Notes: generated from the sequence alone by a model not told the origin. Counted from the stretch's first letter, positions 25,541-44,292 are shown. The stretch: DNA of 64,000 nt from Bacteroidota bacterium (GCA_020832235.1 JAFIEZ010000003.1:256450-320449), one strand, 5' to 3'. Numbers and translations are program-made.

Positions 25541-27337
25541 CTATTTCAGGAGCATCATTTTCTGACTTAGCCGAAGTCCCGATCCCGTTGTGAGCACATA
25601 TAGATACATCCCACTGGATAGCGAACCGGCATTGAAGTAGACCTGATGGTTACCTGCACTTCGTGCCTCATTGGAAATAAGGGTGGAAACCAGTCGTCCA
25701 GTAATATCATACACACTGAGTGTTACCGTATCGCTGCTGTTTAAGCTGTATCGGATGGTGGTTGTAGGGTTAAACGGATTGGGGAAGTTCTGATACAGCG
25801 ATACGTGTGAAGGTATTTCTGTATCAAATTCGGGTGCACTGGTTGTGGTTGGGAAATAAAAGCGCGTAATCACAGGGAAATGATCGGAAGTGGTTCCCAG
25901 ATAATTGCTTACGTAGGGAGAGGGATCGAATACATGCTGGGCGCGGTCGAGGTGATAATCAAATAGCTTCTCATTTATCATGATATGGTCTATCATACTT
26001 CGATCGCGGAACGAGGTAAATCCCGCAAGGCTAAGTGCCCGGGTAACAATAAGATATATTGGGTCATCATTGAAGATTTGGTAGGGCGAAACCCGGCCTT
26101 GAAATGTAGCCACAGTTACATCGTCGTTGTAATCACCCAAGATTATGAGCTTGTTATCTCGGTTGGTTGCGTCGGCATACTGTTTTAAAATATTCGCATC
26201 AAATACTCGTGTGTTGTAGTCTTCTATGTTTGAAAATGCTTTGGCATGCAGATTGGTAGCCTTAATGCGTCGGGTTTCATCCGAGCCGACTGGTGTGAAA
26301 TCGAAGGTGAACTCGAGTGGATTTCGGCCTCCCCAACCGCCGCCCGTGGCTACATTTGCAGACGCAATGGAATCGATGGTATTGGTATTGAAAAAGAATG
26401 CAATGCGTTGGTTTTGCGATGGAAAAGCTCTGGGTGAAATAAATCCACGATAACCGTCCAATTCATTAATCAGGCGCTGAAACATGGCATCGTCTGCAAT
26501 TTCCTGCATGGCGATAATGTCCATCTGGGTCTCTTCGATGATGCGTTTCACATTCTGAAATTGGAGTTCCAGATTGGATGGACCATTGGTTGGGTGACCA
26601 AACCATTCAATATTCCAGGTCATGACATCAAGGGTTCGTGATGCATCCGGAAAGGTGAACGGGTTTTCAACGATATCATCGACCGATCGCGGAGCGAGTC
26701 GATAGTTGCCTCTAAAGGTGGTTACAATACCTGTTATATCTACCTCAGTCTGGGGGGCTGGCGTACCGGATATGCCCGAATCATTCGTAACAAAAAGTCT
26801 TCCGGTATCCTCCAGAATACGTAGTGTGTACTCACTGCCTCCCTGAAGATTTCCTGAAACAAAGTTATTTGATCCGGATGAAAAGATGGGTGATTGTGAA
26901 AGTGTAACCAATCTGCTTTCGAACTCACCGCTGTTGATATCGGCTATGCCAACAGGTATAGATTCCTGAAGCCGTCGCCCATCGGTATATATGCTGAATG
27001 TAACTGTTCCTGCCAGGCGTTGAAACCCGTCTGTCTGCCCGGCCGGAAAGGGGGTCTGACCGAATATTCCAAGTGTACCAGTTACAACAACCGAGTCGCC
27101 CACCTCACTCGCATTGGCAAGATCGGCAGAAAAAATAGCGATGCCAGCCGATTCGTCTTGAATGTACACATGACCATTCAGTACGCCTTCAGTAGTAATC
27201 CAGCCCGTGGTGGTAACTACTGTACCCGCAGACTGGTTTTTTGCTTCAGATATCGTGACGGGCTCACTCTGCGCTAAAAGCAGCGTAGGGGCGAATATCA
27301 GAAAAATTAAATAGAAGAAGATTCGATTTGCATTCAT
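25541..27337 (-). CDS. secreted EEP-family nuclease/phosphatase with N-terminal OB-fold-like module and T9SS C-terminal sorting tail
   Basis: EEP motifs MTWNIEWFG, IIAMQEI, LGDYNDD and SDHFPVITRF. N-terminal module GHVYIQDESAGIAIF..VGDSVVVTGTLGIFGQ. Tail LYQNFPNPFNPTTTIRYSL...GMYLYVL...KMMLLK. The start is probably MNANRIFFYLIFLIF (27337) rather than 27382. Confidence 0.85.
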   Translation of the reverse strand: MNANRIFFYLIFLIFAPTLLLAQSEPVTISEAKNQSAGTVVTTTGWITTEGVLNGHVYIQDESAGIAIFSADLANASEVGDSVVVTGTLGIFGQTPFPAGQTDGFQRLAGTVTFSIYTDGRRLQESIPVGIADINSGEFESRLVTLSQSPIFSSGSNNFVSGNLQGGSEYTLRILEDTGRLFVTNDSGISGTPAPQTEVDITGIVTTFRGNYRLAPRSVDDIVENPFTFPDASRTLDVMTWNIEWFGHPTNGPSNLELQFQNVKRIIEETQMDIIAMQEIADDAMFQRLINELDGYRGFISPRAFPSQNQRIAFFFNTNTIDSIASANVATGGGWGGRNPLEFTFDFTPVGSDETRRIKATNLHAKAFSNIEDYNTRVFDANILKQYADATNRDNKLIILGDYNDDVTVATFQGRVSPYQIFNDDPIYLIVTRALSLAGFTSFRDRSMIDHIMINEKLFDYHLDRAQHVFDPSPYVSNYLGTTSDHFPVITRFYFPTTTSAPEFDTEIPSHVSLYQNFPNPFNPTTTIRYSLNSSDTVTLSVYDITGRLVSTLISNEARSAGNHQVYFNAGSLSSGMYLYVLTTGSGLRLSQKMMLLK

Positions 27338-27552
27338 TATAAATAGAGCGGATTGCATGGATTGGTAATAGCGATCAAACATAATAGAGCAACCAGTATA
27401 TAAAAGTACAAATCTGGTGGTCTACAGATAGTTTATTTTACAAGATAAAAAATCTTGCTGTAATCAGCCGTGATAAAGACTTTTACGTGTTAACTTACTG
27501 TTAACCTCTTCAACAATTGCACGCAAAGTTTTCTTTTCCATCAAAATTGGGT

Positions 27553-27560
27553 TAACTTTG
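27553..27560 (+). promoter_or_regulatory. candidate Bacteroidetes-type -7 box (TAACTTTG) for the 27626 cluster
   Basis: Exact TAnnTTTG match 66 nt upstream of the ATG. No convincing -33 TTTG at the expected spacing. Confidence 0.25.
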
Positions 27561-27625
27561 AGCATGTTTTGAGAGTGGCAATAGCAATCACGTATCACTC
27601 TATTAGTAGTTTCAAAAAATAATTA

Positions 27626-29740
27626 ATGAGATATTCTTTCTTTAAGAAGCTGTTTATACTTGCTTCTGTTGGACTATTATCCAGCTCAACCCTCACCGCA
27701 CAGCAGGTATTTGAGCGTACAGCTGTAGAGGTAAGTAACCTGGGCATATCATTCACAAACGTCGGAACCATCGGCAGGCCCAATGTAAGAACGGTACCTG
27801 TAGGCCCTCCAAGCATGGAATTCCCACGTGGCTCAGGTACAGAACATTTGTTTGAAGCCGGCATTTGGCTAGGTGCCCAGATTGGACTGGAGACAAGAGT
27901 TACAACCGCCACTATTACTACAAGTGGAGGGTACTCGCAAGGGGCTCCGGGCTTCGAAATTACCAATAATGGCGAATTTTTTGTCGAGCGGTCGTCACTT
28001 GAGAATAACCCAAATTTTTCTCCCGAAGCCATTTCTCATCAGGATTTAATCGCACAGTTCACGGATCGTAACGTTACTATTGGTAATCAGGTGATTTCGG
28101 GTCACGTACCACTTGGCGCAGATATCAGATTTGAATCGTATAACTGGAATTTTGGCTTTACAGAAGGCCTCACCGTAATTCGTTACGATATCACCAACAA
28201 CGGCAGCGATGTCTGGAGTAACTTTTATTTTGGGATGTACTCCGATTTGGTAACCCGAAATATAAACGCACCTAATGTTGAAACGGGATCGGCCTTCTTT
28301 AATAAGGGTGGAGTAGGCTGGCTTGATTCGCTTCACGCCCTCTATGTTTTTGATCGTGGCTCGTTTGATAATCCCAGAATTAATACGCATGCAGCAAGCG
28401 TTATCATAGGTACCGATTATCGAGGTGTAGATATCCACCCGCGGAACAGAGAAATTTTAGAACAGACCGGTCAGCCGGTAGCCTCTGTTCATCCCTCATT
28501 TTGGTTGTTTGGTGGCGGGGCTGGAGAGTTTGCTAGACCTGGGGGAGATGACCTTCGGTATGAAAGACTTCAAAGACCCTTTCCACTGGATTCGCCATTG
28601 CCCACAAACCCATCGCAGACCTATAGAGATGCGCTTAGAAACGATGGATTAAGCGCAAATGGAAATTATATACAGTTAAACTCCATCGGTCCATTTCCTG
28701 TAGTAGAACCCGGTGAAACGATCACGATTTACGTTTCATTTGTGGCCGCATTGATGCCAAGCGAATTTCAAGGATTGGTTCCCGGTAACGTTCCTAATGT
28801 AGATGACCTTGATAATGAAAACTCTCGGTCCAATTTGGTTGAAAGTATTGGCTGGGCTTACAGATTATTCGACGGGTCAGAAAATGAAGATGGATCCAGA
28901 ACGCGCTTCTTGGTACCGGAACCCCCCACTACACCCAACATGAGAGTTGAACTGGATGCAGGTATTGCCAGCATCTATTGGGACGATATAGCTGAATTCT
29001 CTGTGGATCCGGTTACAGGTGAAGAAGATTTTGCCGGCTATCGGTTGTACAGAACTCAGCTCGGTGATGACTTGCGCGGGACGATTACCACGAGTGCACA
29101 AATGCTACGTGAATGGGATGTAGAAGGTAAGAATGTGGGTTTTAACACCGGTTTTGATGAAATCAGATTGCCTGAACCTGTTACCTTCCCGGGAGACCCT
29201 ATTCAATATACCTACCGTTTTGATGTCCCCAATCTACTCAGCGGATGGCAGTACCTTTTTTCCGTAACAGCTTTCGACGAAGGCGATGAGCGCACTCCGC
29301 CTCTTGAAACCAGTATCATCGCCAATGCGGTACGGGTATTCCCCGGAACACCGGTGAATGAAAACTTCAGCAGTAACGATCCGGAGTTTCAGGTAGGTGT
29401 GTATCCTAATCCATACAGAGTAAATGCAGCATGGGATGGCAGCAGTCCATTTTCACGTAAGCTGGTTTTCTATAATCTCCCCTCCAGAGCCCAGGTTCGA
29501 ATCTACACACTTTCAGGTGAAATAGTGGCCACTCTCGATCATGAGTCGGCCACGTACACCGGTGATACGCGGTGGTTCCGTGATTTCGGCGGGTCAAACC
29601 GACTGATGTCGGGAGGAGAGCATGCCTGGGATCTCCTTTCGGCAGCTAACCAAAATCTTACTACAGGTTTATACCTGTATACTGTAAGAGACCTCGATTC
29701 AGGAAACATACAACGTGGCAGGTTTGCCATAATCAAGTAA
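27626..29740 (+). CDS. secreted protein of unknown function with atypical T9SS/FlgD-Ig-like C-terminal tail (cluster gene 1)
   Basis: Signal peptide MRYSFFKKLFILASVGLLSSSTLTAQQ. The body has no motif I recognise. The C-terminus reads VGVYPNPYRV...VRIYTLSGEIVATL...GLYLYTVRDLDSGNIQRGRFAIIK. Confidence 0.8.
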   Translation: MRYSFFKKLFILASVGLLSSSTLTAQQVFERTAVEVSNLGISFTNVGTIGRPNVRTVPVGPPSMEFPRGSGTEHLFEAGIWLGAQIGLETRVTTATITTSGGYSQGAPGFEITNNGEFFVERSSLENNPNFSPEAISHQDLIAQFTDRNVTIGNQVISGHVPLGADIRFESYNWNFGFTEGLTVIRYDITNNGSDVWSNFYFGMYSDLVTRNINAPNVETGSAFFNKGGVGWLDSLHALYVFDRGSFDNPRINTHAASVIIGTDYRGVDIHPRNREILEQTGQPVASVHPSFWLFGGGAGEFARPGGDDLRYERLQRPFPLDSPLPTNPSQTYRDALRNDGLSANGNYIQLNSIGPFPVVEPGETITIYVSFVAALMPSEFQGLVPGNVPNVDDLDNENSRSNLVESIGWAYRLFDGSENEDGSRTRFLVPEPPTTPNMRVELDAGIASIYWDDIAEFSVDPVTGEEDFAGYRLYRTQLGDDLRGTITTSAQMLREWDVEGKNVGFNTGFDEIRLPEPVTFPGDPIQYTYRFDVPNLLSGWQYLFSVTAFDEGDERTPPLETSIIANAVRVFPGTPVNENFSSNDPEFQVGVYPNPYRVNAAWDGSSPFSRKLVFYNLPSRAQVRIYTLSGEIVATLDHESATYTGDTRWFRDFGGSNRLMSGGEHAWDLLSAANQNLTTGLYLYTVRDLDSGNIQRGRFAIIK

Positions 29741-29764
29741 AAAAACACACACAAGCAATACGCT

Positions 29765-32230
29765 ATGAAACACTTCTACAAAATTTGTGTCGCTGCGCTT
29801 CTGACTCTGGCTTTCGGAGCGGAAACACTGCTGGCACAAACAACACCAACTCCGGTAATGATACGCGATCTGCATGCGTACGATGTGCTCCCGACATCAC
29901 AGGCAGACCTGCCAAACCATCCACTCGTGGGTGAGTTGGTAACGTTTGATGCCGTTGTGGTATCTTACCCAAAAAACTCAGGGCTGGCATCAATCACCAA
30001 TGAAGGACTTCCGGGTCGTATTCACGTCTTTGTCGCAGATGTAAACGCCATTGAAGAAGGTCGTGATGGGAACTATCTGCAGTTTGTACACGGTGGTGCC
30101 TTACGAGGGGTCCTGCAAGATTACCTCCCAGGTGATGTTATCAGAGTTGAGGGTCGACTCACATTTTTCAATAATGTATCGCAATTTAACCCATCTGATG
30201 TTTCATTACTAGGGAACATGACAACTGATGCTCAGTATGCCGATCTCGCGCCACTTTTACAACCGCAGGTTGTAGAACTTGGTGACATTAACATTCCTTC
30301 TCCGGTCGTTGATGGTGCACATCGATGGAACGCAGAAGCATATTCCAAGTATAATCACCAATATGTGAAAATTGAAGGCCTTGAGGTTATTGGTCGCTCA
30401 GAAGCCCCAACGGGTAGACCATGGGTTGCTTTAACAGATGGTACCTCTATCATTTATACCACTGATACCTCACTTCGTTTCCGTAATGATCGTGGTAGCA
30501 GCTATGGTAATAATCTATCGTATAACTACCGTCGATTAGCAGAAGACCTGGATGGGCCCTATACCCCGCCACCAGCCGGAGCTATCGTTGATATTGCGGG
30601 TTATATTGTAGTTAATACATTTAACCCTGCAGGATTTGATGAGACAGGTGTACAATCTACACTTAAAATTGCTCCATGGGATGATGGCATTGTTTGGTTG
30701 CAAGATGGTACCGATACAGAGTTTCGGGTAACTGAGGGAATCAATAATGACCTTGTTATTCAGGGTTTTCCCGCTTTAGTTGAGCTTAATACAGCAACAA
30801 CACAAGACACGGTGACATCGAGCCAGCAAGCTGTAGTATCGGCCAATATTGCTCTGCCAGAAGCTACATATACGCTTGGTGAAGTACGTATCCGTTATAC
30901 CGCACTAGGCTTTAACGATGATACGGCCACTGAAGTGACCGAAGTACTCACGGGATCTGGAAATGAATACTCCTTTACTTTCCCACAGTTTCCTGACTTT
31001 ACACGAGTGAGTTACACGATTGAAGCTGTTGCTACAACTCCGGAAAATGTGGAAACAATTGGACGTTTGAACGGTGTTGTATTTGTAGATAACGCGAATA
31101 TAACTGTCCCTCCATCATTCTCTCAGCCGTCTGGTACCTATCAAAATAGTGTTACTGTTGCGCTTAGTACTCCGATTACCGGTGCAACTATATATTACAC
31201 GCTTGACGGATCTGCTCCAACTACATCTTCTGCGATTTATGCTGGTTCTCCGATAACGCTTACGAGCTCTGCTACGATAAACGCATTTGCGACGAGTACT
31301 GGCAGAGAGCCTAGCCCGGTTGCAAGCCGTACCTATACTGTAGAGGTGGATGTGCAGGATGTTAATACCCTGGCTGGACTTAGAGATGTACCACAGGATG
31401 GTACTGTTTTCAGATATACTGGCGAGGCAGTTGTTACTTTTACTAGAAATAGTAGAAACCAACGATACATCATGGATGAGTCAGGAGGTATCTTAATTGA
31501 TGATGCTCCCGGAATTATAACATCCCCGTACACAGTAGGTACTGTAATTACAGATTTACTTGTAACAGTGGGTACTTTTCAGGGATCAGTACAAATTGTT
31601 CCTCAAGCTGACCCAGGGACACCTTCTGAAACTCGTGATGTTGTTCCTAAGCGTATCCTTTTGAGTGATCTTGATTTGATACACGAATCTTCTTTGGTTG
31701 TTGTTGCAGACGTTGAGTTTGTTGGAGCATCAGGGGATTTTGCCAATGCTACGAATTATACAATCACAGATCCTTCATTGGGCGAAGGTGAAACACGCCC
31801 ATTCCGAACAGCTTTCAATGAAGCTGATTACATTGGTACACCAATACCAACTGGAAAGGTTAACCTCGTGGGTATCGCTCAGAACTTCAATGGTACAATG
31901 AGAATAGTACCTCGCTCTTTAGACGATTTCGGTGTAGAAGTATCTGCAGATCGTGGAGAAATGGTTTATGAGTTCAACCTGAACCAAAACTTCCCGAACC
32001 CATTTAACCCTGTTACCACGATCAACTATACTATTGGCGAAACAGCTAATGTTAACCTGGTAGTGTATGATGTATTGGGCCGACGAGTGGCTACACTCGT
32101 AAATGAAGTTCAGTCTGCCGGATTTCATCAAATCAACTTCGATGCTTCCAGACTTTCAAGCGGTACCTACATCTACCGTCTCGAAACCAATGGTCAGGTT
32201 GCTATCAAAAAAATGATGCTCATAAAATAA
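29765..32230 (+). CDS. T9SS-tailed surface protein with OB-fold-like modules and a chitobiase/hexosaminidase-C-like Ig domain (cluster gene 2)
   Basis: Signal peptide ends AETLLAQ. PSGTYQNSVTVALSTPITGATIYYTLDGSAPTTSSAIYAGSPITL is CHB_HEX_C-like. Modules GRIHVFVADV..GDVIRVEGRLTFFNNVSQF and RYIMDESGGILID..VGTFQGSVQI. Tail LNQNFPNPFNPVTTINYTI...GTYIYRL...KKMMLIK. Confidence 0.85.
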   Translation: MKHFYKICVAALLTLAFGAETLLAQTTPTPVMIRDLHAYDVLPTSQADLPNHPLVGELVTFDAVVVSYPKNSGLASITNEGLPGRIHVFVADVNAIEEGRDGNYLQFVHGGALRGVLQDYLPGDVIRVEGRLTFFNNVSQFNPSDVSLLGNMTTDAQYADLAPLLQPQVVELGDINIPSPVVDGAHRWNAEAYSKYNHQYVKIEGLEVIGRSEAPTGRPWVALTDGTSIIYTTDTSLRFRNDRGSSYGNNLSYNYRRLAEDLDGPYTPPPAGAIVDIAGYIVVNTFNPAGFDETGVQSTLKIAPWDDGIVWLQDGTDTEFRVTEGINNDLVIQGFPALVELNTATTQDTVTSSQQAVVSANIALPEATYTLGEVRIRYTALGFNDDTATEVTEVLTGSGNEYSFTFPQFPDFTRVSYTIEAVATTPENVETIGRLNGVVFVDNANITVPPSFSQPSGTYQNSVTVALSTPITGATIYYTLDGSAPTTSSAIYAGSPITLTSSATINAFATSTGREPSPVASRTYTVEVDVQDVNTLAGLRDVPQDGTVFRYTGEAVVTFTRNSRNQRYIMDESGGILIDDAPGIITSPYTVGTVITDLLVTVGTFQGSVQIVPQADPGTPSETRDVVPKRILLSDLDLIHESSLVVVADVEFVGASGDFANATNYTITDPSLGEGETRPFRTAFNEADYIGTPIPTGKVNLVGIAQNFNGTMRIVPRSLDDFGVEVSADRGEMVYEFNLNQNFPNPFNPVTTINYTIGETANVNLVVYDVLGRRVATLVNEVQSAGFHQINFDASRLSSGTYIYRLETNGQVAIKKMMLIK

Positions 32231-32252
32231 GTGTCATGGCAGTTTCCTAAAC

Positions 32253-32297
32253 AGCTGGGTGTGCACATTGCACACCCAGCTTTCTTTTTTATTTTTT
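32253..32297 (+). terminator. strong rho-independent terminator between cluster genes 2 and 3
   Basis: Perfect 13-bp stem AGCTGGGTGTGCA (32253-32265) / TGCACACCCAGCT (32269-32281) with a 3-nt loop, followed by TTCTTTTTTATTTTTT. The next ATG is at 32305. Confidence 0.8.
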
Positions 32298-32304
32298 CAT
32301 ACCC

Positions 32305-33873
32305 ATGTCGAAACGAATTTATTATCTGTTCTTATTTGCTGTTTTGGCTGTTTCTTGTGATGCTGGTCTGACCGGAACGGCTACTGAAAATCAGCCACCA
32401 TCTACCAGTTTTACGGTTAATTCTATTAACCTACCAGAAGGGCAAAGACTTACAAGCCAAATAAATATTTCCTGGTGGGGCGACGACCCCGATGGTTATG
32501 TTGTTGGATATGAATTCTACATCGGAGATGATGTTTCGGCAGACGTTGAATGGGTATTCACATCTAAAACAGATAGTACATTTGTACTGCCAATTGAAGA
32601 GGGAAACCTTGACGCAGATGTTCGTTTTACAGTAAGAGCCGTAGATAATGAAGGAGCTGTTGACCCAGATCCACCAAGCTTAGTTTTTCCTATACGTAAT
32701 TCACCGCCTTCTGTCAGATTTTTAGCAACTGAAATACCACCCGATACGACTTATCGCGTTTTTTCGTTTGGATTTCGAGCAACTGACCCGGATGGAGAAG
32801 CAAATTTAAATCGCGTTGAATTTGCAATTAATGATACAACATCAGCTGATGCCTGGACAGTTTTAGACCCTTCTATACAGCTGCTTACATTCCGAATTGA
32901 CGATACACAACCCGGTAATCCAACTGAAATGTTCACCGGAAGGGGTGCGACACGTACAAATACGGTTTTAAACACGATTCGCACCGATGGCGATAATACT
33001 TTTTTTCTACGAGCTATCGATAATGCCGGTGCAGTAAGTAGTATTCAGCAGTTTAGCTGGTATGTGAAAAGGCAACAATCAAACATATTGGTACTCAATG
33101 ATTTTCCACTTTCCGATCGCATCAATCTTCATTTAGACCTATTAGCACAAATTGGTATTGATAATGTAGATTTGATGAATATTACTGATGGCAACGCATC
33201 CGGTGGCCGTAGGGTTGTACTTTCATCTCAGTTCCCAAACCGGGCTCTTGTCGTACCTACTACAAATATGATGCTAGCAGAATGGGATCATATTTACTGG
33301 CTATCTAATGATTTAGACAGAAATATTAGTTATGCCATTGAAATGACTATAGACTTTTTTGCCAACGGCGGAACAATGTTTGTAAACATCCCAACAAAAA
33401 ACGATGTACCCGCAGATAGTCCCGTATTCGAATTTTTGCCCTTTGACAGAATTCAATCTCCGCCAGCTGCCAGACGTTTTTTTATTGCAAATAACTCTGA
33501 ACTTACAGCTACTGAAGACGCGGTAAACCTCATAAATTCAGGTCAAACATCAATTACTGAAGTTCCATACTTGAGATTTACAAGGAACCAGGTAAGCAAT
33601 CTTTTTCCAGTAGTACCATTTGGTGAGACCATACAGCTTTTTGAAGCAAACTTTCAGGTTCAAACCCTATTTCCCGTAACCACATCACCTTATGAAGGTC
33701 CAAAGGGTATAGCTTCAGTGAGTCCTACCAATTCTGTTCTCTATTTCGGTGTAGATCTTAATGAATTCGATCAAAACGAGCGCGTTGTAGGGGACGAAAC
33801 GCTACCAGCCAGCGATCTAGCCGGACTTCTCAGGTTACTTGTACTTGATATTCTAAACTTTGAGCAACGATGA
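32305..33873 (+). CDS. lipoprotein of unknown function with repeated Ig-like segments (cluster gene 3)
   Basis: Lipobox LAVSC. Repeated pattern ISWWGDDPDGYVVGYEFY...FTVRAVDNEGAVDPDP and GFRATDPDGEANLNRVEFAIND...RAIDNAGAVS. Confidence 0.8.
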   Translation: MSKRIYYLFLFAVLAVSCDAGLTGTATENQPPSTSFTVNSINLPEGQRLTSQINISWWGDDPDGYVVGYEFYIGDDVSADVEWVFTSKTDSTFVLPIEEGNLDADVRFTVRAVDNEGAVDPDPPSLVFPIRNSPPSVRFLATEIPPDTTYRVFSFGFRATDPDGEANLNRVEFAINDTTSADAWTVLDPSIQLLTFRIDDTQPGNPTEMFTGRGATRTNTVLNTIRTDGDNTFFLRAIDNAGAVSSIQQFSWYVKRQQSNILVLNDFPLSDRINLHLDLLAQIGIDNVDLMNITDGNASGGRRVVLSSQFPNRALVVPTTNMMLAEWDHIYWLSNDLDRNISYAIEMTIDFFANGGTMFVNIPTKNDVPADSPVFEFLPFDRIQSPPAARRFFIANNSELTATEDAVNLINSGQTSITEVPYLRFTRNQVSNLFPVVPFGETIQLFEANFQVQTLFPVTTSPYEGPKGIASVSPTNSVLYFGVDLNEFDQNERVVGDETLPASDLAGLLRLLVLDILNFEQR

Positions 33874-36818
33874 ACCAATTTAAACAACTTCTGCTACTCG
33901 CCGTAATATTGGTGGGAATCTCCTTAACGGCTATGGCTCAGACCAATGGAACTATCCGCGGTACTGTAATCGACCGTGAAGATCGTGAGCCTTTGATTGG
34001 TGTAAACATCATTATTCGCGGTACATCCTTTGGTACAGTCACCAACTTTGATGGCGAATATGAAATTCGAAACATCCGACCGGGGGAGTATTCTGTGGAG
34101 TTTCGTTACATAGGCTACGAGTCAATGCTGTTCACAGGTATTCGCGTTGACGCTGGTGAAGCTACCGTCATTAACGTTGAAATGAACCCACAAGCCATAT
34201 CCGCTGGCGAAGATATTGTTATCGTTGGTGAACGTCCCATTTTTGACGTAGAACAGTCTAGTACTACTACCTCATTTTCTTCCGATCAGATTGCCGTAGC
34301 TCCTGTACGCAGAGTTGATGAAGTAGTTGGTATGACAGCCGGTGTTGTTCGCGATCCTACCGGATTATACATCCGTGGTGGTCGAGCAAATGAAACAGGC
34401 TTTATAGTCGACGGTGTTTCTGCTCAAGATCCACTATCCGGTACAGGTTTTGGTCTTGATCTTGGAACCAGCGCATTTGCCAACGTTGAGGTAACAACCG
34501 GTGGGGTAGACGTAGAGCATGGTAATCTTACGTCTGGAGTGGTTAGCGTTCGAACACAGGATGGTGGCGATGCATATGCCGGATTTGTAGCGCATAAACG
34601 TGATAATCCAGGTAGAATGACATCTACAACATCTAACTTTTTCACGGATATTTATGAGTTTAATTTTGGCGGACCCGAACCCATAACCACAAGTCTGTTG
34701 CCTGCTTTAGGCGTTCAGATACCCGGGAAACTATATTTCTTTTCTGCCGGTCAGGTGAATTTCACCAATGAATTCATGCGAAATGCTGCCAGTCAGGTTC
34801 AATCCTCGCTCGTTGATAATACCTTCTTTTCGCCACGCCAGGATAACCGCTGGAGCGGTATGCTGAAATTAACTTACCGAATACGACCAGGTCAGCGTAT
34901 TGAAGCAGCCTACCAGCGCTCACTCACAGTGAATCAAAATACACGTATGCTTCAAATCGTTGGCGATGACGTTCAGATTCGTCCCGGTTACCAGTTCTTC
35001 TTCTCAGAAAACCTCGATAACGCCAATACATACGCACACGATAGTAAGCTATCTTACGTCAAATGGACCCACGCGCTTAATGCCCGAACTTTTTATGACG
35101 TACAGGTAAGCCGACTCTTTACTCGTTTACGTGCCGATGCCAACGGTCGCTTCTGGAGGCCAACAGCCGTCGATGGGGAGTTTGATGCCGGCTCAATTGT
35201 GGTTTTTCCGGTAACACCTTTTCCGGCTGGTGATGACTTTACATATGTACTGCCCGGTCCAGGTTTTGCCAATAATGGCGGTCTTGCTTCTTTGTGGCAC
35301 GACCATTATGCTGAAGAGTACACCATCCGAACAAACTTCACGCGTAACATGATGAATAACACCCATCGGTTACGATTCGGGATGGAAATGAAGTTTAAAG
35401 AATATCAATGGATTAGTATAAATCGTCCATGGGTTGGTGCACCAATTCAAATTGACGAAGATACGTTTTCAGAAACCAATCGCCTTGGATCAACTTCCGA
35501 TATCTGGAATGTGAATCCCGCAAGAGGTGCATTTTATGTATCCGATCAGATTCGATATCAGGGACTGATTGCCAACATCGGAATGAGATTGGAATACTGG
35601 TTCCCCGGAGCCTACGTAGATAACTTCGTTGATGACCCGCTTTCTCCAATTCCAGACGCTATCAGAGAAGCGTACAGAAACGATACGTATTCTTTGTTCG
35701 GTAACCGTTTCAAAATGAGACTGCTTCCGCGTGTGAATGTATCATTCCCGGTTCGAGAGAATATGGTGATGTACTTTAACTACGCGCACAAAAGTAAGTT
35801 GCCTCACCCGACATTTATCTATGCCGGTCTGGATCCGTTTTATCAAGATCGTTCATTCCTTTCTAACCTGGGTAATCCGAACCTGGATCCGGAGATTGAC
35901 ATTTCCTATGAAATTGGATTCCGTTACCAGCTAACTTCCAATGACGCCCTGAATTTCACGGCTTTCTGGAGCGATAAGTACGATTTCATTACATCAGAAC
36001 GTATTATTGTTCGAGATGCTACCGGCAGAGATACAGAGCGTTCTTTCCGAGTAAACGGTGATTTCGCAAGAGTACGTGGCCTGGAGGCTTCTTACATCAA
36101 ACGTTATAGCCACTTCCTTACAGGTAGTATTAATGCTACTTACTCACGCGCTGAAGGACTAAGTTCTACCAGTAATGATGCTCTCAGAAATATCATCACT
36201 GGCGGACAGGATGTGGGTAACAACATTGAAACACCACTTGCATGGGACAGACCTTTTGATGTGAAAGGAAGCTTAATATTCCGATGGGACCGAAATAACG
36301 ATCCACTTTTCGGATTGGCACCTTTGAATCACTTCGCCATATTTTTCTCAGGCACCTATCGTAGTGGTATTCGATACACACCGATGATTTTCCGTGGTAA
36401 CGAACGTAACCCAATTACAGGGGCAGAAGATTGGAGGCCAATTTATGAGCGTGATCCGGACCCAACACGCCGCTTTGCAAGCGTTGGCGAACCGTGGCTC
36501 ATGTTCGATATGAATATTCAGCGTTGGTTCAACATCGGTGGCACCCGTCTCATGGCCACACTTGAAATCACCAACTTGTTTAATTCGAAGAACGCAGCCA
36601 TTATCAATCCGGTTACTGGCAAAGCATACCGAACCGATTATCCTACCTCACAGTCTGAACTGATTGCTTTGCGAAACGATCGTTCTTTTGATGTTCCCTC
36701 AAACGTGCGTGACCCTCGCTATCAAGATCCACGCGATAACAATGTACCATCTTACCTGAATCCCGCCAATTTCCTCGAACAGCGCCATATCATGTTCGGT
36801 ATAGGTATTAATTTCTGA
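33870..36818 (+). CDS. TonB-dependent receptor with CarboxypepD_reg N-terminal domain (cluster gene 4)
   Basis: GTIRGTVIDREDREPLIGVNIIIRGTSFGTVTNFDGEYEIRNIRPGEYSVEFRYIGY, plug TTGGVDVEHGNLTSGVVSV, barrel ending IMFGIGINF. The start overlaps the upstream stop (ATGA). Confidence 0.9.
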   Translation: MNQFKQLLLLAVILVGISLTAMAQTNGTIRGTVIDREDREPLIGVNIIIRGTSFGTVTNFDGEYEIRNIRPGEYSVEFRYIGYESMLFTGIRVDAGEATVINVEMNPQAISAGEDIVIVGERPIFDVEQSSTTTSFSSDQIAVAPVRRVDEVVGMTAGVVRDPTGLYIRGGRANETGFIVDGVSAQDPLSGTGFGLDLGTSAFANVEVTTGGVDVEHGNLTSGVVSVRTQDGGDAYAGFVAHKRDNPGRMTSTTSNFFTDIYEFNFGGPEPITTSLLPALGVQIPGKLYFFSAGQVNFTNEFMRNAASQVQSSLVDNTFFSPRQDNRWSGMLKLTYRIRPGQRIEAAYQRSLTVNQNTRMLQIVGDDVQIRPGYQFFFSENLDNANTYAHDSKLSYVKWTHALNARTFYDVQVSRLFTRLRADANGRFWRPTAVDGEFDAGSIVVFPVTPFPAGDDFTYVLPGPGFANNGGLASLWHDHYAEEYTIRTNFTRNMMNNTHRLRFGMEMKFKEYQWISINRPWVGAPIQIDEDTFSETNRLGSTSDIWNVNPARGAFYVSDQIRYQGLIANIGMRLEYWFPGAYVDNFVDDPLSPIPDAIREAYRNDTYSLFGNRFKMRLLPRVNVSFPVRENMVMYFNYAHKSKLPHPTFIYAGLDPFYQDRSFLSNLGNPNLDPEIDISYEIGFRYQLTSNDALNFTAFWSDKYDFITSERIIVRDATGRDTERSFRVNGDFARVRGLEASYIKRYSHFLTGSINATYSRAEGLSSTSNDALRNIITGGQDVGNNIETPLAWDRPFDVKGSLIFRWDRNNDPLFGLAPLNHFAIFFSGTYRSGIRYTPMIFRGNERNPITGAEDWRPIYERDPDPTRRFASVGEPWLMFDMNIQRWFNIGGTRLMATLEITNLFNSKNAAIINPVTGKAYRTDYPTSQSELIALRNDRSFDVPSNVRDPRYQDPRDNNVPSYLNPANFLEQRHIMFGIGINF

Positions 36819-36828
36819 TCGAATACAA

Positions 36829-37854
36829 ATGCAATTCAAACAACTTTCTCTAAACCTGGCTAAAGTAGGGCTCATTCTGTTCATGGCTTTAGTGGTAAGC
36901 GCCGAGCCGCTGCTGGCCCAGAGGTCTTTAATACCAAGCCTGGGCAACTCCCGTTCCGGTACCTCAGGATTTCAGTATCTCAAGATTAATGTTGATGCGC
37001 GTTCTGCAGCCATGGCAGGTTCCAACATAGCCGATGCATCAGACGTATCTGCACTGTATTTGAATCCCGCTCTGGCCGTACAGCGACAGGGTAACCAATT
37101 CTATCTGGCACATACCGCATATTTTGCTGATATATCTATGAATTATATCGGCTACGTTCATCGGCACAGAAATTTTGCCTTTGGTGGAGCGATAACCTAC
37201 CTGGACTCCGGCTCTATGGAAGAAACCACGGAGTTTAATCCATTCGGCACCGGTCGAACCTTCCGTACCATTCATATGGCGGCACAGTTAACTATGGCTC
37301 AGGAGCTTACCAACCTGTTCAGCTATGGTGTCAGCATCAAGTATCTGGATGAACGAGTGGAAGAAATTCAGTCTCAGACAACGGTTGTTGATATCGGCTT
37401 CTTTTACCGTGTTGGTGACACCGGTCTCCGATTTGCCATAGGACTAAATAACTTTGGTATAGACGCCACCCCATCCGGTGAAACCGAACGCCAGACGCTG
37501 GATGGACGCGTAATTGAAACCGAATTTGAAGATGTAGGGGCTCCCACCACGTTTTCTATCGGAGCGGCCTTTGATGCCTATCGAACCGATAATTTGTCGG
37601 TTCTTGTTACCGGTGCTGTCATTAATCCCAGTGATAACGCTGAACGATTTAGCGTAGGAACGGAACTTGGCTATATGAACATGTTTTATACCCGTTTGGG
37701 TTACGAATTTGGAGTAGATGAGGCCAGTCTGCCCAGCTTTGGCGTAGGCTTTAAGCTACCCGTCTTAAACTATGGACTCGGAGTTGACTACGGGTTCTCT
37801 ACACGCGATCGTCTCGGTTCTCTGCACCGAATAGCTTTGAAATTTAATTTCTGA
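36829..37854 (+). CDS. PorV/PorQ-family-like outer-membrane beta-barrel (cluster gene 5)
   Basis: Signal peptide, then GTSGFQYLKINVDARSAAMAGSNIADASDVSALYLNPALA (as I recall the PorV/PorQ N-terminal signature). Ends HRIALKFNF. 341 aa. Confidence 0.7.
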   Translation: MQFKQLSLNLAKVGLILFMALVVSAEPLLAQRSLIPSLGNSRSGTSGFQYLKINVDARSAAMAGSNIADASDVSALYLNPALAVQRQGNQFYLAHTAYFADISMNYIGYVHRHRNFAFGGAITYLDSGSMEETTEFNPFGTGRTFRTIHMAAQLTMAQELTNLFSYGVSIKYLDERVEEIQSQTTVVDIGFFYRVGDTGLRFAIGLNNFGIDATPSGETERQTLDGRVIETEFEDVGAPTTFSIGAAFDAYRTDNLSVLVTGAVINPSDNAERFSVGTELGYMNMFYTRLGYEFGVDEASLPSFGVGFKLPVLNYGLGVDYGFSTRDRLGSLHRIALKFNF

Positions 37855-37862
37855 TTATACTC

Positions 37863-39155
37863 ATGAGAAATCTATTAACCACAACACTTTTCGTATCAAC
37901 GGTCTTATTTAGCTACGGTTGTGCTGAAATGTTTGGCACGAAAAGTGATTCTATAACCGATGATATATTCGATCAGGGTCGTCAAGATCCTACTCTGATT
38001 ATTGAGGAAGTAGGATACGCAGCTTTGCTTCCCTTCTGGACTGGCTTTGACCAGCCTACAGACGTCTTCGTAGGCTACGATGAAATGGTCTATGTTACCG
38101 ATGCTAATGGTCTGCATGTACTTGACAGGGCTGGTCGCCGCGCTAGTGACGTTATTCCACTAAATGGCGCTGTTGCCGTTGTTCAAGACCGCCTTTTGAA
38201 TGTTTATGTTGCAGCCAGAAAAGACACGATTATATCTGCTGTTGACCCTAACATTACCTGGAACCTGCCTGCTGTTTACAAAATTCGCAATGCCAACGGT
38301 GCCGGACCAGTACAATTTGTACAAACCATGGTTCATCCGTTTATGGACGCCTCAAGGGCCGTATCAACAACAAACCTACGTTTTCGATTAGATAGAAATC
38401 GAGCAGATAACGACGAACTTGTTGAAATTACAGGTCTTACCATATTGGCCAATAATCAGTTACTTGTGTCCCGCCGCGGTCCCAGAAATGTGACAGGAGC
38501 GGGTATGGCAGCCGACAATACCGTTCTGGTTTATGACGCCATTCGAAATACCCAGGGTCAACGTACCGGTCAGATGCGTAACCTCACGCAGATTAGAAAC
38601 TTGAATCCAAATAACCCGACACTCCTTAGTGCCGTTGGTCTGTCTGATATTGTTTCTTTTGTGGCTCCACCTCAACGAGAAAACATGACCACTAGTCAGA
38701 GTTTTTTGGTATCGCAAGGGGCGCAAAATACCAGTATTCCTTTCCGCGTTTTGTGGGTTGAGGCCGTTGAGACTCCCGATGGTCTCGAGTACCGTTCAAA
38801 TGGGCAGTTGTTAAATCGAGACACTACTCGGGCCGATTCATTCCTCTATAGCGAATTTCGATTTGAAAATCCTACCGGTATGGCTTTTTCAGCCGATGCA
38901 AGAGGTCATATTTTTGTTGTTGATGCAGCTAAAGACAGCCTGTTTTTGTTTCAATCGAATGGTCACGAAGGTGTTAACCCACCACCGGGTTCTACCTTGA
39001 CCAAGGCTGTAAATGTATCATTCGGGGGAACAGGAAGCGGACCTCGTCAATTTAATAATCCCAATGGCGTAGCCTATTTCAGACAGGTAGTTTACGTTGC
39101 CGATACCGGTAATAACCGTATTTCCAGATTTAAACTGAATACAGATTTCGAATAA
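37863..39155 (+). CDS. NHL-repeat beta-propeller lipoprotein (cluster gene 6)
   Basis: Lipobox LFSYGC. NHL-like repeats include GSGPRQFNNPNGVAYFRQVVYVADTGNNRISRF and PTGMAFSADARGHIFVVDAAKDSLFLF. Confidence 0.75.
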   Translation: MRNLLTTTLFVSTVLFSYGCAEMFGTKSDSITDDIFDQGRQDPTLIIEEVGYAALLPFWTGFDQPTDVFVGYDEMVYVTDANGLHVLDRAGRRASDVIPLNGAVAVVQDRLLNVYVAARKDTIISAVDPNITWNLPAVYKIRNANGAGPVQFVQTMVHPFMDASRAVSTTNLRFRLDRNRADNDELVEITGLTILANNQLLVSRRGPRNVTGAGMAADNTVLVYDAIRNTQGQRTGQMRNLTQIRNLNPNNPTLLSAVGLSDIVSFVAPPQRENMTTSQSFLVSQGAQNTSIPFRVLWVEAVETPDGLEYRSNGQLLNRDTTRADSFLYSEFRFENPTGMAFSADARGHIFVVDAAKDSLFLFQSNGHEGVNPPPGSTLTKAVNVSFGGTGSGPRQFNNPNGVAYFRQVVYVADTGNNRISRFKLNTDFE

Positions 39156-39175: not shown

Positions 39176-39218
39176 ATAAAAAAGGCACAGAGCATGAAGC
39201 TTAACTGTGCCTTTTTTG
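39176..39218. terminator. bidirectional rho-independent terminator
   Basis: AGGCACAG (39183-39190) pairs with CTGTGCCT (39205-39212), flanked by an A-run and a T-run between convergent genes. Confidence 0.7.
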
Positions 39219-40869: not shown

Positions 40870-40883
40870 GCTGTACTTAAAAC

Positions 40884-41056
40884 TATAAGTTACGGTTCCT
40901 CGAGAAGAGGATTAATAGGGAACCTTGTGAAAATCAAGGACTGTACCCGCAACTGTAAGTTCTTTAATGCTGAAATCCCACCTTAGCCACTGCCATTAAT
41001 CGGCGGGAAGGCCGGTTTCAGTAAGAACAAGTCAGGAGACCTGCCGATAACTTACA
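40884..41056 (+). promoter_or_regulatory. cobalamin (B12) riboswitch
   Basis: Conserved blocks read directly: AATAGGGAACCTTGTGAAAATCAAGG, CTGTACCCGCAACTGTAA, AGCCACTG...GGGAAGGC, and the B12 box AGTCAGGAGACCTGCC. P1 pairs TAAGTTACGG (about 40886-95) with CCGATAACTTA (41044-54). It lies 43 nt upstream of a TonB-dependent receptor gene. Confidence 0.9.
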
Positions 41057-41098
41057 CCATCGAACTTTCGGGAATAAAGGTTCAAACGGATTCTAAAG

Positions 41099-42994
41099 AT
41101 GACCATTCTACTGGTTTTCCTGGCCCTGGTAGCCATGGCTGAAATTGAACTATCTGAGTTATCGGGTGAACTCTCTCCCGCCGACACGCTCATACTTCCG
41201 GGTATAACTGTAACAGCTGATAGGTTCGACATCCGCGCATCCTATTTCCCTGTTCGTTCAATTAGTATTCACACAGATAGTATTCATGCATTTGCCGCTC
41301 AAACAGCTGGGGATATGCTCAGTCGCCTGACTATTGCAAATGTTCGCTCTTACGGTCCCGGACTTGCACAAACAGTCTCTCTGCACGGATTTAGCGGATC
41401 TCAGATGACTGTGCTTTGGGATGATATACCTTTAAACAATCCAATGCTTGGATTAACTGACCTTTCGTTATATCCCGCTGTGATGATAGATCAGATGGAT
41501 GTTAACGCTCATCAGGGTAGTGCCGAGTATGGTGCACATGCCATAGGAGGTGTCATCCAGCTACGCCAGCATCGTTCGCAAAATCCAATGCAAACCATCA
41601 TAATTCAGGGAAATTCGATAGCCTCGCGCTCGATTCAAGGTCGTGTTATGCAGCCACTTGGAAAGTGGTATTTAGACGTAGGTGGTGTATATCAGCTATC
41701 TCCAAACCGATTTACGTATCAGGATATTACCCGCAACCCTGTAGAAGAAAGAAAAAGAGAAAACGCTCAGAAGGAGCTCGCTTCAATTTTTGCGCAGGTT
41801 TCCTATACCGGAACACAATTGCAGCACACATTTAGATTATGGGCTACTGATGTGCATTCAGGAATCCCCGGGTCAATTGTAGGTCCGTCGCCGAGTGCGA
41901 GTCAGCACGATGGCATGCTGCGATTGAGCAACCGAACCAACATGATTATTTCACAAAGATCAGTAATCACCACGGCACTATCTTTTAGTCATCATAAGCT
42001 TGATTTCCGTGATCCGGATACAAATATAAACAGTTTGAGTACGTCGCGTACCAGCTCTGGAAGAATGGCTCTGCGGGTTACACCGTCTGTTAATCAGCAG
42101 CTCAGACTACAAGGTGGGTACAGTATTAGTAACATCGAATTCACCGAATACGACGCTCCCCAAAGAAATCATGGGTTTTTTCAGTTAAATGCGTATTCCA
42201 ATGTATTCGACTGGCATATCCATCCATCTGTCCGATACGATATGTTCAATCAGTTTGGAAATGCCTTGACCGCCAGCTTAGGTATTGTCAGAGAGTATGA
42301 CTTGTTGGATAGCCGGGTTTTTGCCAATGCCAGCCGGAATTTTGCCCCGCCAACATTCAATGATTTATACTGGCCCGGATCCGGAAATACGGCTCTGGTA
42401 CCTGAAACGTCTATAAAGCTTGATTTTGGATTTGAAACAACTGTTGCTGAAGCAAAAATTCACGTACAATTTTTTGATAACCATATCGAAAATGGTATAC
42501 AGTGGCTGCCATCTTCCGTAGATGGTCGGTTCCGACCCCGAAATATCAGAGCGGTTCGATCTAGTGGTGTCAGTGCCGGTTTAAACCGTCGGTTTCGTAC
42601 CGGGGGATTCACACATTTTGCTTCGGGAGAGTTTACCATTCTGGACGCCCGCTATACCAGGCAACGTTTTACCGGCGACGATGCAAAGGGTAATCAACTT
42701 GTATATCAGCCAAGGTACCGCTCAATGCTTTCGCTAACGAGCGACATGCATGTTGCGTCAATATCATTCAGCTATAATTTTACTGGCAGTCGTTCTATTA
42801 CGGAAGACAACGCACTTCAGCTGCCATCAAATCACATAGTTAATGCCGGTTTACATAAAGATGTTGTTTTAGGTAACCAGAAATTAACTATTGCCGCACT
42901 GATTGAAAACGTTCTTGACGCACGCTATGAGCTTATTCGATTTTATCCCATGCCCGGCAGACATATTCATCTAAGCCTAAAAATAACCCGCTAA
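41099..42994 (+). CDS. btuB: TonB-dependent vitamin B12 receptor
   Basis: 631 aa behind the B12 riboswitch. Plug motifs ITVTADRF, SLHGFSGSQMTVLWDDIPLNNP and GSAEYGAHAIGGVIQL, followed by a barrel. Confidence 0.85.
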   Translation: MTILLVFLALVAMAEIELSELSGELSPADTLILPGITVTADRFDIRASYFPVRSISIHTDSIHAFAAQTAGDMLSRLTIANVRSYGPGLAQTVSLHGFSGSQMTVLWDDIPLNNPMLGLTDLSLYPAVMIDQMDVNAHQGSAEYGAHAIGGVIQLRQHRSQNPMQTIIIQGNSIASRSIQGRVMQPLGKWYLDVGGVYQLSPNRFTYQDITRNPVEERKRENAQKELASIFAQVSYTGTQLQHTFRLWATDVHSGIPGSIVGPSPSASQHDGMLRLSNRTNMIISQRSVITTALSFSHHKLDFRDPDTNINSLSTSRTSSGRMALRVTPSVNQQLRLQGGYSISNIEFTEYDAPQRNHGFFQLNAYSNVFDWHIHPSVRYDMFNQFGNALTASLGIVREYDLLDSRVFANASRNFAPPTFNDLYWPGSGNTALVPETSIKLDFGFETTVAEAKIHVQFFDNHIENGIQWLPSSVDGRFRPRNIRAVRSSGVSAGLNRRFRTGGFTHFASGEFTILDARYTRQRFTGDDAKGNQLVYQPRYRSMLSLTSDMHVASISFSYNFTGSRSITEDNALQLPSNHIVNAGLHKDVVLGNQKLTIAALIENVLDARYELIRFYPMPGRHIHLSLKITR

Positions 42995-43004
42995 ATTAAA
43001 AAAT

Positions 43005-44030: not shown

Positions 44031-44187
44031 AAAATACATGCCCTATAAGTAATATATAATCAGGTCTTTACAGCTATCTACTGTGGAGGCCTAGTTATCA
44101 ACATACTGTCCACACATATAGCAAAATTTTTATCTGATGTTTATAGTTAGCTTTGTGTTTTGTGGAAAAGATGTTGAAAAAAAAGTG

Positions 44188-44195
44188 TAATTTTG
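44188..44195 (+). promoter_or_regulatory. candidate -7 box (TAATTTTG) upstream of nrdJ
   Basis: Exact TAnnTTTG match 98 nt upstream of the nrdJ ATG. The -33 element is not convincing. Confidence 0.25.
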
Positions 44196-44292
44196 TTTGC
44201 ACTTAACCAAGAATGTGTCATCTTTAGTAACTGTATAAAAATCTCATTTAAGAGCCTACAGTTCGTCATAATCAGTGAAAAATTAGCAAGTC

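Follow-up and report, generated by a model that had tools for sequence, protein, structure and literature searches.

A conserved six-gene outer-membrane cluster as a candidate type IX secretion-linked system for extracellular nucleic acid

Organization and conservation of the cluster

The DNA analysed here is a stretch of 64,000 nucleotides (nt) from a Bacteroidota bacterium, referred to as the window, whose positions 27,626 to 39,155 hold a cluster of six genes named g1 to g6 in their order, all on the + strand. A sequence-only reading had described the cluster as coding for outer-membrane proteins with no assignable function and had proposed a capture and import machine at the cell surface, in which proteins delivered by T9SS, the system of type IX secretion, cooperate with a TonB-dependent channel. 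The six co-directional open reading frames (ORFs) lie where that reading had placed them and are spaced by 24, 74, -4, 10 and 8 nt; the overlap of the g3 stop and the g4 start is an ATGA that can be read directly in ...CAACGATGAACC... The genes and the features that surround or interrupt them are the following (aa, amino acids; CTD, C-terminal domain; EEP, endonuclease/exonuclease/phosphatase).

25541-27382, - strand: divergent nuclease candidate, DUF5689 + EEP + T9SS type-A CTD
27383-27625: divergent promoter region between the nuclease gene and g1, with GTTAAC hexamers and a TAACTTTG box
27626-29740, + strand: g1, 704 aa, secreted protein of a new family
29765-32230, + strand: g2, 821 aa, T9SS cargo with DUF5689
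32253-32281, + strand: internal terminator/attenuator hairpin in the g2-g3 gap, 13-bp stem followed by TTTCTTTTTTATTTTTT
32305-33873, + strand: g3, 522 aa, lipoprotein of a new family
33870-36818, + strand: g4, 982 aa, TonB-dependent transporter (TBDT)
36829-37854, + strand: g5, 341 aa, PorV/PorQ-family outer-membrane barrel
37863-39155, + strand: g6, 430 aa, lipoprotein with NHL repeat
39176-39218: bidirectional intrinsic terminator, common to g6 and a convergent M48 peptidase gene

The conservation of this order was followed in species-representative genomes, which were scanned for relatives of g1; 83 loci were fetched and all their ORFs were compared by BLAST. Loci with a g1 relative number at least 558 and belong to Balneolales, Rhodothermales (e.g., Rubrivirga sp. 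IMCC43871), Ignavibacteriota/Melioribacteraceae, KSB1 and Calditrichaceae. Genes g1 to g6 follow each other in the same order on one strand in 46 of the 48 loci whose sequence is long enough (17/17 Balneolales-like, 9/9 Rhodothermales-like and 20/22 Ignavibacteriota/KSB1), and the other two run off their contigs. Their adjacency goes far beyond chance because the same six-gene order is kept in these 46 loci across at least three phylum-level lineages. It extends far past the close relatives, a restriction to which would have made the neighbourhood fortuitous in the terms of the sequence-only reading. The g1 product is the best-conserved protein of the cluster (54-87% identity within Balneolales). 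Identities of the Ignavibacteriota proteins to those of the window are 35-39% for g1, 36-41% for g4, 33-38% for g5, 24-31% for g6 and 25-31% for g3, and g4 spans 36-78% across lineages. A metagenome-assembled genome (MAG) labelled 'Bacteroidetes bacterium' codes for a hypothetical protein with 100% identity to the g3 product, and the relatives that bear a name are all Balneolales, Cyclonatronum or Gracilimonas. Note that five loci (L035, L040, L041 of Rubrivirga, L002 and L051) code for an extra CarboxypepD_reg TBDT of ~880-1060 aa directly upstream of the cluster, 24-29% identical to g4 over its N-terminal part.

The six genes fall into two parts. The gap between g2 and g3 is occupied by a GC-rich hairpin (free energy, dG, -24.6 kcal/mol; z -7.1), followed by TTTCTTTTTTATTTTTT and ending 9 nt short of the ATG of g3. 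A promoter would not fit between hairpin and g3, and g3-g6 are therefore transcribed by read-through of the hairpin or from inside g2. The hairpin is stable in nearly every locus and the gap sequence itself is unconserved: the gap is structured (z <= -2) in 43 of 50 loci with a median z of -4.6, vs 3 of 46 coding controls. In MAGs labelled Bacteroidia/Chitinophagales, g1 keeps a neighbour of the g2 family, downstream or divergent, with no g3-g6 after it. The conserved hairpin and this stand-alone pair lead us to read the cluster as a cargo pair g1-g2 (module A) that an attenuating terminator separates from the transporter quartet g3-g6 (module B). The cluster is not a simple single unit: the conserved hairpin parts g1-g2 from g3-g6, and the pair also occurs alone.

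The terminator described downstream of g6 is real (dG -22.8 kcal/mol and z -5.2 on the + strand, -20.3 and -4.4 on the - strand). It is bidirectional because it folds on both strands and is flanked by an A-run and a T-run. At the other end, the 288-bp upstream intergenic region of the sequence-only reading holds if the divergent gene starts at Met16 (27337), and shrinks to 243 nt if counted from its longest ORF (613 aa). Met16 is the likely true start because the protein begins with a signal peptide, MNANRIFFYLIFLIFAPTLLLAQ, only when counted from there, and because of a 598-aa orthologue in the close relative L084. This region carries GTTAAC at 27489-27494, 27500-27505 and 27551-27556, three copies within 68 nt of the 13 found in the whole window, and a TAACTTTG box at 27553-27560 that matches TAnnTTTG. 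A block reading GTGTTAACnnAnTGTTAAC ... GGGTTAACTTTG is conserved in L084 and L085, whose g1 products are 87% and 77% identical to that of the window. The GTTAAC block is a candidate operator that may co-regulate the nuclease gene and g1. A scan for sigma-70-type promoters was uninformative (27 sites vs 27 expected), and an Rfam scan of the cluster found no known regulatory RNA.

The encoded proteins and the nuclease neighbourhood

The g2 product has the signal peptide and the T9SS tail attributed to it (TIGR04183, 48.8 bits for a cutoff of 23; PF18962, 42.4 bits for a cutoff of 27). It also carries a complete DUF5689 domain at residues 545-722 (DNA 31397-31930; Pfam, 53 bits for a cutoff of 28.6), a partial DUF5689-like domain at residues ~95-250, an immunoglobulin (Ig)-like CHB_HEX_C_1 domain at 455-520 and a type-A CTD at 743-818. 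A profile made from nuclease-fused DUF5689 domains alone detects residues 545-722 at 7e-21 and, weakly, residues 122-209; hhalign gives g2 values of 97.9% and 92.3%. Proteins at position 2 of the cluster appear unconserved by BLAST yet are orthologous throughout (full-length hhalign of g2 with those of Ignavibacteriota/KSB1, 100%, E 2.6e-79). They feature two DUF5689-like domains in all lineages, with hhalign values of 98.8% and 98.5% against the nuclease-fused profile. The same profile gave hhalign values below 1% with g1, g3, g5 and g6, which were discarded as hidden DUF5689 proteins and serve at the same time as a control of specificity.

DUF5689 is the family of DdbD, encoded in a DNA-utilization locus of Bacteroides (PMC12478041). 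The ddbABCDEF locus of B. thetaiotaomicron codes for three nucleases, the TBDT DdbC and DdbD, and DNA depletion depends on it; the predictions for DdbD are a position on DdbC and a resemblance to the double-stranded DNA-binding domain of p202 (PMC12478041). Natural transformation of Riemerella depends on a DUF5689/DUF5017 protein and on a CarboxypepD_reg outer-membrane protein encoded next to it, both of them essential (PMC8459023). T9SS and the phyla that carry the present cluster are mentioned in neither paper.

DUF5689 is found again in the gene that diverges from g1. Its product matches DUF5689 (40.4 bits), Exo_endo_phos (38.1 bits) and Por_Secre_tail (41.2 bits) in Pfam and TIGR04183 (41.0 bits), and within the EEP superfamily its sub-threshold NCBIfam matches are to nucleases (MnuA, xth, ExeM/NucH). 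The gene has the same divergent position in the two relatives with 87% and 77% g1 identity. The statement that the locus has no recognisable hydrolase therefore holds inside the six ORFs and fails just outside them, where DUF5689, an EEP nuclease domain and a T9SS tail are joined in one protein. Likewise, no function can be assigned from the six ORFs taken alone, except that g2 carries DUF5689 and that nuclease genes adjoin the cluster. The following genes were found in the fetched flanks (PLD, phospholipase D superfamily).

Window, L084, L085, L010, L012 (two copies): DUF5689 + EEP + CTD, divergent, upstream
L001, L008, L011: DUF5689 + PLD + CTD, divergent, upstream; L001 has in addition an EEP + CTD gene
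Rhodothermales-like L022, L024, L026, L027: EEP, directly after g6
L049: EEP, directly before g1
Ignavibacteriota L050, L052, L058, L060, L061, L066: DUF5689 + FN3 + PLD, after g6, directly so in L052, L058, L060, L061 and L066
L067, L080: EEP, after g6
L056, L074, L081: at least DUF5689, after g6, at the cut end

An EEP or Nuc-type PLD gene is thus present in the fetched flanks of 18 of the 46 full clusters, in three lineage groups. This count is an underestimate because most loci have less than 600 bp fetched after g6. The solved sequences closest to the PLD domains are Zucchini/MitoPLD and the Nuc endonuclease, and the closest NCBIfam model is NucT. The matches of the EEP and PLD neighbours to named nuclease families all lie well below the family cutoffs. 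Elsewhere in the window, at 12015-13544 and 14 kb from the cluster, a second EEP protein (Exo_endo_phos_3) with the lipobox SWSAC and an OB-like C-terminal segment is encoded, another candidate surface nuclease.

The g1 product starts with a signal peptide; its AlphaFold2 (AF2) model (pLDDT 81) shows an N-terminal β-supersandwich domain of ~400 aa, then one that is FN3-like (430-578) and, at 585-704, a divergent domain that resembles a CTD. No match was obtained in Pfam or among PDB sequence profiles, and the only one in NCBIfam is a sub-threshold 14.5 bits to the PorZ C-terminus. Foldseek searches of the PDB gave FN3 and weak supersandwich matches (glycoside hydrolases, phosphorylases, lyases; E ~1e-6, TM-score ~0.25). 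The inability of the sequence-only reading to place this protein and the 522-aa g3 in a characterised family is borne out by Pfam, NCBIfam and the PDB, which provided no confident match. Residues E73, H74, E111, D140, D147, N191, D207, R211 and N212 are conserved in at least 97% of 83 sequences from all lineages, a pattern of acidic and histidine residues that points to a site of catalysis or of metal binding. The family of the N-domain comprises 651 representative clusters worldwide (E <= 1e-3), and in a Rosetta-stone search its fusions are limited to PKD, BNR and T9SS tails.

Of the two export features claimed for g1, the signal peptide is present and the sorting tail is weaker than had been stated, with no CTD model matching the protein. 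Its C-terminus aligns with g2-type CTDs at an hhalign probability of 57% (E 1e-4). Among ten long distant paralogues of the N-domain, six carry a Por_Secre_tail (Pfam), five of them reaching the cutoff and P0299 remaining at 20.2 bits. A T9SS tail in g1 is thus probable. The CTD-like domain has ~115 aa (window 29378-29740) and a conserved insertion with H639, W650, G663, G664, W668 and D669. In both cargos the CTD is the most conserved part, by mean identity to the residue found in the window (g1, 0.58 vs 0.39; g2, 0.51 vs 0.23; the g2 CTD being window 31991-32230). The idea that the g1 CTD is uniquely conserved, and hence retained, was ruled out by the same behaviour of g2.

The quartet opens with lipoprotein g3. 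Its AF2 model (pLDDT 87.5) shows three FN3/Ig-like domains (~30-255) and a C-terminal Rossmann-like α/β domain (~258-522). Searches of Pfam, NCBIfam and the PDB returned nothing significant for g3 (best, OmpL47 at 17.2 bits and ColH at E 0.63), and Foldseek of the model against the PDB matched FN3 only, leaving the α/β domain unplaced. Its 490 homologues all lack a name. The lipoboxes LAVSC of g3 (C18) and FSYGC of g6 (C20) were recognised correctly, and both cysteines are conserved in at least 97% of sequences across lineages. Both precede acidic residues, a pattern that in Bacteroidota favours surface exposure (export signal quoted in PMC12478041) and would suggest it for the two lipoproteins.

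The g4 product has a signal peptide, the announced CarboxypepD_reg and plug domains (CarbopepD_reg_2, 68.5 bits; Plug, 30.4 bits for a cutoff of 23.9) and a large predicted barrel that ends in ...GINF. A candidate TonB box, EDIVIVGERP, lies just before the plug, and G120, P123, D126 and E128 are conserved. There is no PF00593 match; TIGR01785 and TIGR01786 give partial sub-threshold matches, and precomputed matches assign PF14905 to the orthologues of L001 and, weakly, L084. Against the SusC/RagA model TIGR04056, g4 scores 60.4 bits vs 368, over the N-terminal part only. No SusD family match was found in g3, g6 or the flanks. The locus is therefore not a canonical polysaccharide utilization locus (PUL), as had been concluded: g4 stays below the SusC/RagA model and no SusD partner was found in cluster or flanks.

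The assignment of g5 to the PorV/PorQ type is robust (NF033709, 156.9 bits vs 90, residues 45-341 on model positions 1-326). It scores below the equivalog models of PorQ (NF033711, 101.3 vs 220), PorV (NF033710, 60.3 vs 250) and PorV2 (37.3 vs 325), and is classified by these profiles as a distinct subfamily of the FadL-like PorV/PorQ family. A conserved G39-R42-G44 motif marks its N-terminus and the protein ends in F. The NHL assignment of g6 is based on one repeat at residues 397-423 (28.8 bits vs 20), and the protein is probably an NHL-type β-propeller. Its gene is the last of the quartet in all loci.

Substrate and mode of action

We lean, with modest confidence, to the view that the locus codes for a PUL-like machine that depends on T9SS and handles extracellular nucleic acid, its logic being related to that of ddb. 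The main argument for the substrate is the occurrence of DUF5689 on two unrelated nuclease folds and twice in g2. The adjacency of nuclease genes in three lineage groups, at differing positions, argues against coincidence. The core of the sequence-only reading, surface capture and import by T9SS cargo and a TonB channel, agrees with the synteny, the g3/g4 overlap, the invariant lipoboxes and the PorV/PorQ barrel. Gene content, domains, the two modules, the deep synteny and the recurring nuclease neighbours are observed; we infer the nucleic-acid substrate, the direction of transport, a physical complex and the role of each protein.

In the proposed mechanism, g1 and g2 of module A would be two abundant surface proteins exported by T9SS, as would be the nuclease. 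The DUF5689 domains of g2 may bind DNA, or may dock on g4 in the way predicted for DdbD on DdbC. The β-supersandwich of g1 with its acidic/histidine cluster could be an enzyme of a new kind or a module for metal-dependent binding. The secreted DUF5689-nuclease, EEP-type in the window and Nuc-type PLD in other lineages, would cut the polymer, and the products would be imported by module B, which would be expressed at a lower level through read-through of the g2-g3 hairpin. Import would be carried out by g4 using TonB, with the translationally coupled g3 and perhaps the propeller g6 forming a utilisome-like cap at the surface. The g5 barrel would tether or receive CTD-bearing cargo beside the transporter.

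Several points weigh against a nucleic-acid machine. The cluster is known from sequence and predicted structures. The EEP and PLD superfamilies also hold phospholipid phosphodiesterases. All cluster proteins are acidic (isoelectric point, pI, 4.1-5.3), including the DUF5689 domains, whose pI of ~4.1-4.3 is unusual for direct binding to DNA. The sole fold resemblance of g1 is to supersandwich domains of carbohydrate enzymes. For 28 of the 46 full clusters the fetched flanks show no nuclease gene, and several Balneola-type loci have none in a 10-kb upstream flank. In the ddb study (PMC12478041) the binding of DUF5689 to DNA is itself no more than a prediction from structure, and what g4 is known to share with DdbC and RA0C_RS04915 is the CarboxypepD_reg N-terminus described in the papers.

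Part of these points would be accounted for by a machine that captures and imports another polymer, glycan or protein, with the nucleases as T9SS cargo genes that are merely co-located. The supersandwich resemblance of g1, the acidity of DUF5689 and the 28 flanks without nuclease are in line with it, as are the CHB_HEX_C_1 and Fn3_assoc domains of g2 and a weak CBM_56 match in a KSB1 orthologue. We consider this rather unlikely. Neither in nor beside the cluster is there a glycoside hydrolase, lyase or peptidase domain in any lineage, the g1 structural matches have TM-scores of ~0.25 only, and CHB_HEX_C_1 is a generic Ig-like spacer. Mere co-location also fits poorly with nuclease adjacency that recurs in three lineage groups at different positions and with DUF5689 being fused to the nucleases themselves.

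The substrate could also be DNA destined for another fate. A DNA-uptake device for natural transformation, similar to Riemerella RA0C_RS04915/04920, would pass intact DNA to ComEC; the requirement for a DUF5689 protein and a CarboxypepD_reg TBDT in Riemerella (PMC8459023), the resemblance of the PLD neighbour to NucT, a nuclease named in NCBIfam, and the wide, single-copy distribution of the system speak for such a device. The system has two kinds of degradative nuclease attached to it, the competence genes ComEC, DprA and ComF were not found near the cluster in the window, and a homologous logic serves catabolism in Bacteroides (PMC12478041). Transformation is thus unlikely, and use of the imported DNA for nutrition (scavenging of phosphorus, nitrogen or carbon) is more likely.

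A third explanation leaves import aside and regards the cluster as the T9SS surface-attachment apparatus of non-Bacteroidia phyla of the Fibrobacteres-Chlorobi-Bacteroidetes (FCB) group, a PorQ-PorZ-like complex that anchors or processes cargo in general. Among the equivalog models the highest score of g5 is that to PorQ (101 bits), g6 and PorZ are both propellers, the g1 C-terminus weakly resembles the PorZ CTD, the C-terminal domains are the most conserved parts of g1 and g2, and the cluster is near-universal in the sampled lineages. This is improbable: g5 falls below both the PorQ and PorV equivalog cutoffs, g1 is unlike a PorU-type sortase because it has no invariant cysteine, the attachment complex as known has no room for a TBDT with plug and TonB-box-like motif, and MAGs labelled Bacteroidia contain the g1-g2 pair without g3-g6. 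Scavenging of phosphodiester lipids, with sphingomyelinase- and phospholipase D-type EEP/PLD enzymes whose hydrophobic products a FadL-like g5 would take up, is very improbable: both superfamilies contain such phosphodiesterases, g5 belongs to a FadL-like family and a weak Toluene_X match is seen in the L001 orthologue, but the closest EEP and PLD matches are the nucleases MnuA, Xth, ExeM, Nuc, NucT and Zucchini (the last counted among the nuclease matches, with a PDB entry titled 'mitochondrial cardiolipin hydrolase') and the literature links DUF5689 to DNA.

The nucleic-acid machine that we favour can be given a bolder form, which we hold to be doubtful. The locus would be an undescribed multi-phylum machine in which g5, as a cargo-specific PorV/PorQ paralogue, permanently tethers proteins with type-A CTDs (g1, g2 and the nucleases) on a TBDT capped by two lipoproteins, and so couples T9SS to TonB-dependent uptake of nucleic acid; the β-supersandwich of g1 would underlie a new fold for phosphodiesterase activity or for the processing of nucleic acid.

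Sediments, soda lakes, sludge and soils hold much phosphorus, nitrogen and carbon in the form of extracellular DNA. Dedicated DNA-utilization loci were first described in 2025, in gut Bacteroidales only. If the present interpretation is correct, DNA utilization also occurs, by a differently built system, in Balneolales, Rhodothermales, Ignavibacteriota and KSB1. A first functional context would be gained for the unannotated families of g1, with its 651 representative clusters, and g3, and the cluster would be the first conserved operon that joins T9SS cargo and a PorV-family barrel to a TBDT. How surface proteins delivered by T9SS stay beside an importer would then become directly testable.

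Comparison with known systems

The closest parallel is ddb (Sharan et al., PNAS 2025, PMC12478041). Both are PUL-like outer-membrane systems of six to seven genes from the FCB group, with secreted nucleases, a TBDT and a DUF5689 protein per locus. The features by which ddb is recognised that are found here are the DUF5689 protein together with a TBDT and the secreted nucleases predicted from sequence in the locus; the anchor used by the ddb authors is a TBDT homologous to DdbC (PMC12478041). The architectures differ. DdbD is a stand-alone protein encoded beside the TBDT whereas DUF5689 is here part of T9SS cargo (g2 and the nucleases), and the extracellular enzymes of ddb are lipoproteins processed by signal peptidase II (SPII). 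In the present cluster g4 is flanked by the unrelated lipoprotein g3, the PorV/PorQ-like g5 and the NHL lipoprotein g6, and the conserved g1 has no ddb counterpart.

The pair RA0C_RS04915/RS04920 of Riemerella anatipestifer (PMC8459023) likewise associates a CarboxypepD_reg transporter with a DUF5689 surface protein that act on DNA. It consists of two competence-linked genes, without T9SS tail, PorV-like barrel, g1 or g3, and with no fusion to a nuclease described. The architecture reported for its transporter is seen in the window at 7126-9567, where a TBDT-like ORF with CarboxypepD_reg and OMP_b-brl_3 overlaps a 211-aa ORF (9413-10048) that appears to code the remainder of the barrel. Positions 7126-10048 probably belong to a single gene interrupted by a frameshift, whether as a pseudogene or through an error of assembly.

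SusC/SusD PULs and utilisomes share with the cluster the joint coding of a TBDT, surface lipoproteins and enzymes, and the translational coupling of a lipoprotein gene to the transporter gene. They differ from it by SusD and by carbohydrate-active enzymes (CAZymes), both absent here, and by the use of lipoproteins where this cluster relies on T9SS to bring enzymes and binders to the surface.

Within the T9SS families of PorV, PorQ-PorZ and PorP/SprF, g5 is a bona fide PorV/PorQ barrel encoded beside CTD-bearing cargo. It scores below the PorV and PorQ equivalog models, as said above, and shares its operon with a TBDT. Cargo-specific PorP/SprF paralogues adjoin type-B CTD cargo; for type-A CTD cargo we know of no cargo-specific PorV paralogue. 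A literature search on PorV paralogues beside TBDTs and on T9SS in Balneolales found nothing relevant.

The BtuB-BtuG system of Bacteroides has a TBDT with a β-propeller lipoprotein as its cap. A propeller lipoprotein gene near a TBDT gene is also present here with g6, which is of the NHL type, is separated from g4 by g5 and may act as a cap. Note that the window contains, at 40876-41063, a cobalamin riboswitch (RF00174, 110 bits), followed by a BtuB-like TBDT (41099-42994), a DUF5074 β-propeller (43005-44030) and a class II B12-dependent ribonucleotide reductase (44293-47940). The region 40876-47940 looks like a B12 capture unit beside a B12-dependent enzyme. On the - strand, a GWxTD-domain protein (58948-60417) and a XerC/D-type tyrosine recombinase (50502-51416) have no apparent link to the cluster.

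The nucleases that neighbour the cluster share their catalytic folds and an OB-like N-terminal module with ExeM/NucH and MnuA of the EEP type and Nuc/NucT of the PLD type. Unlike these enzymes, they carry T9SS tails and DUF5689.

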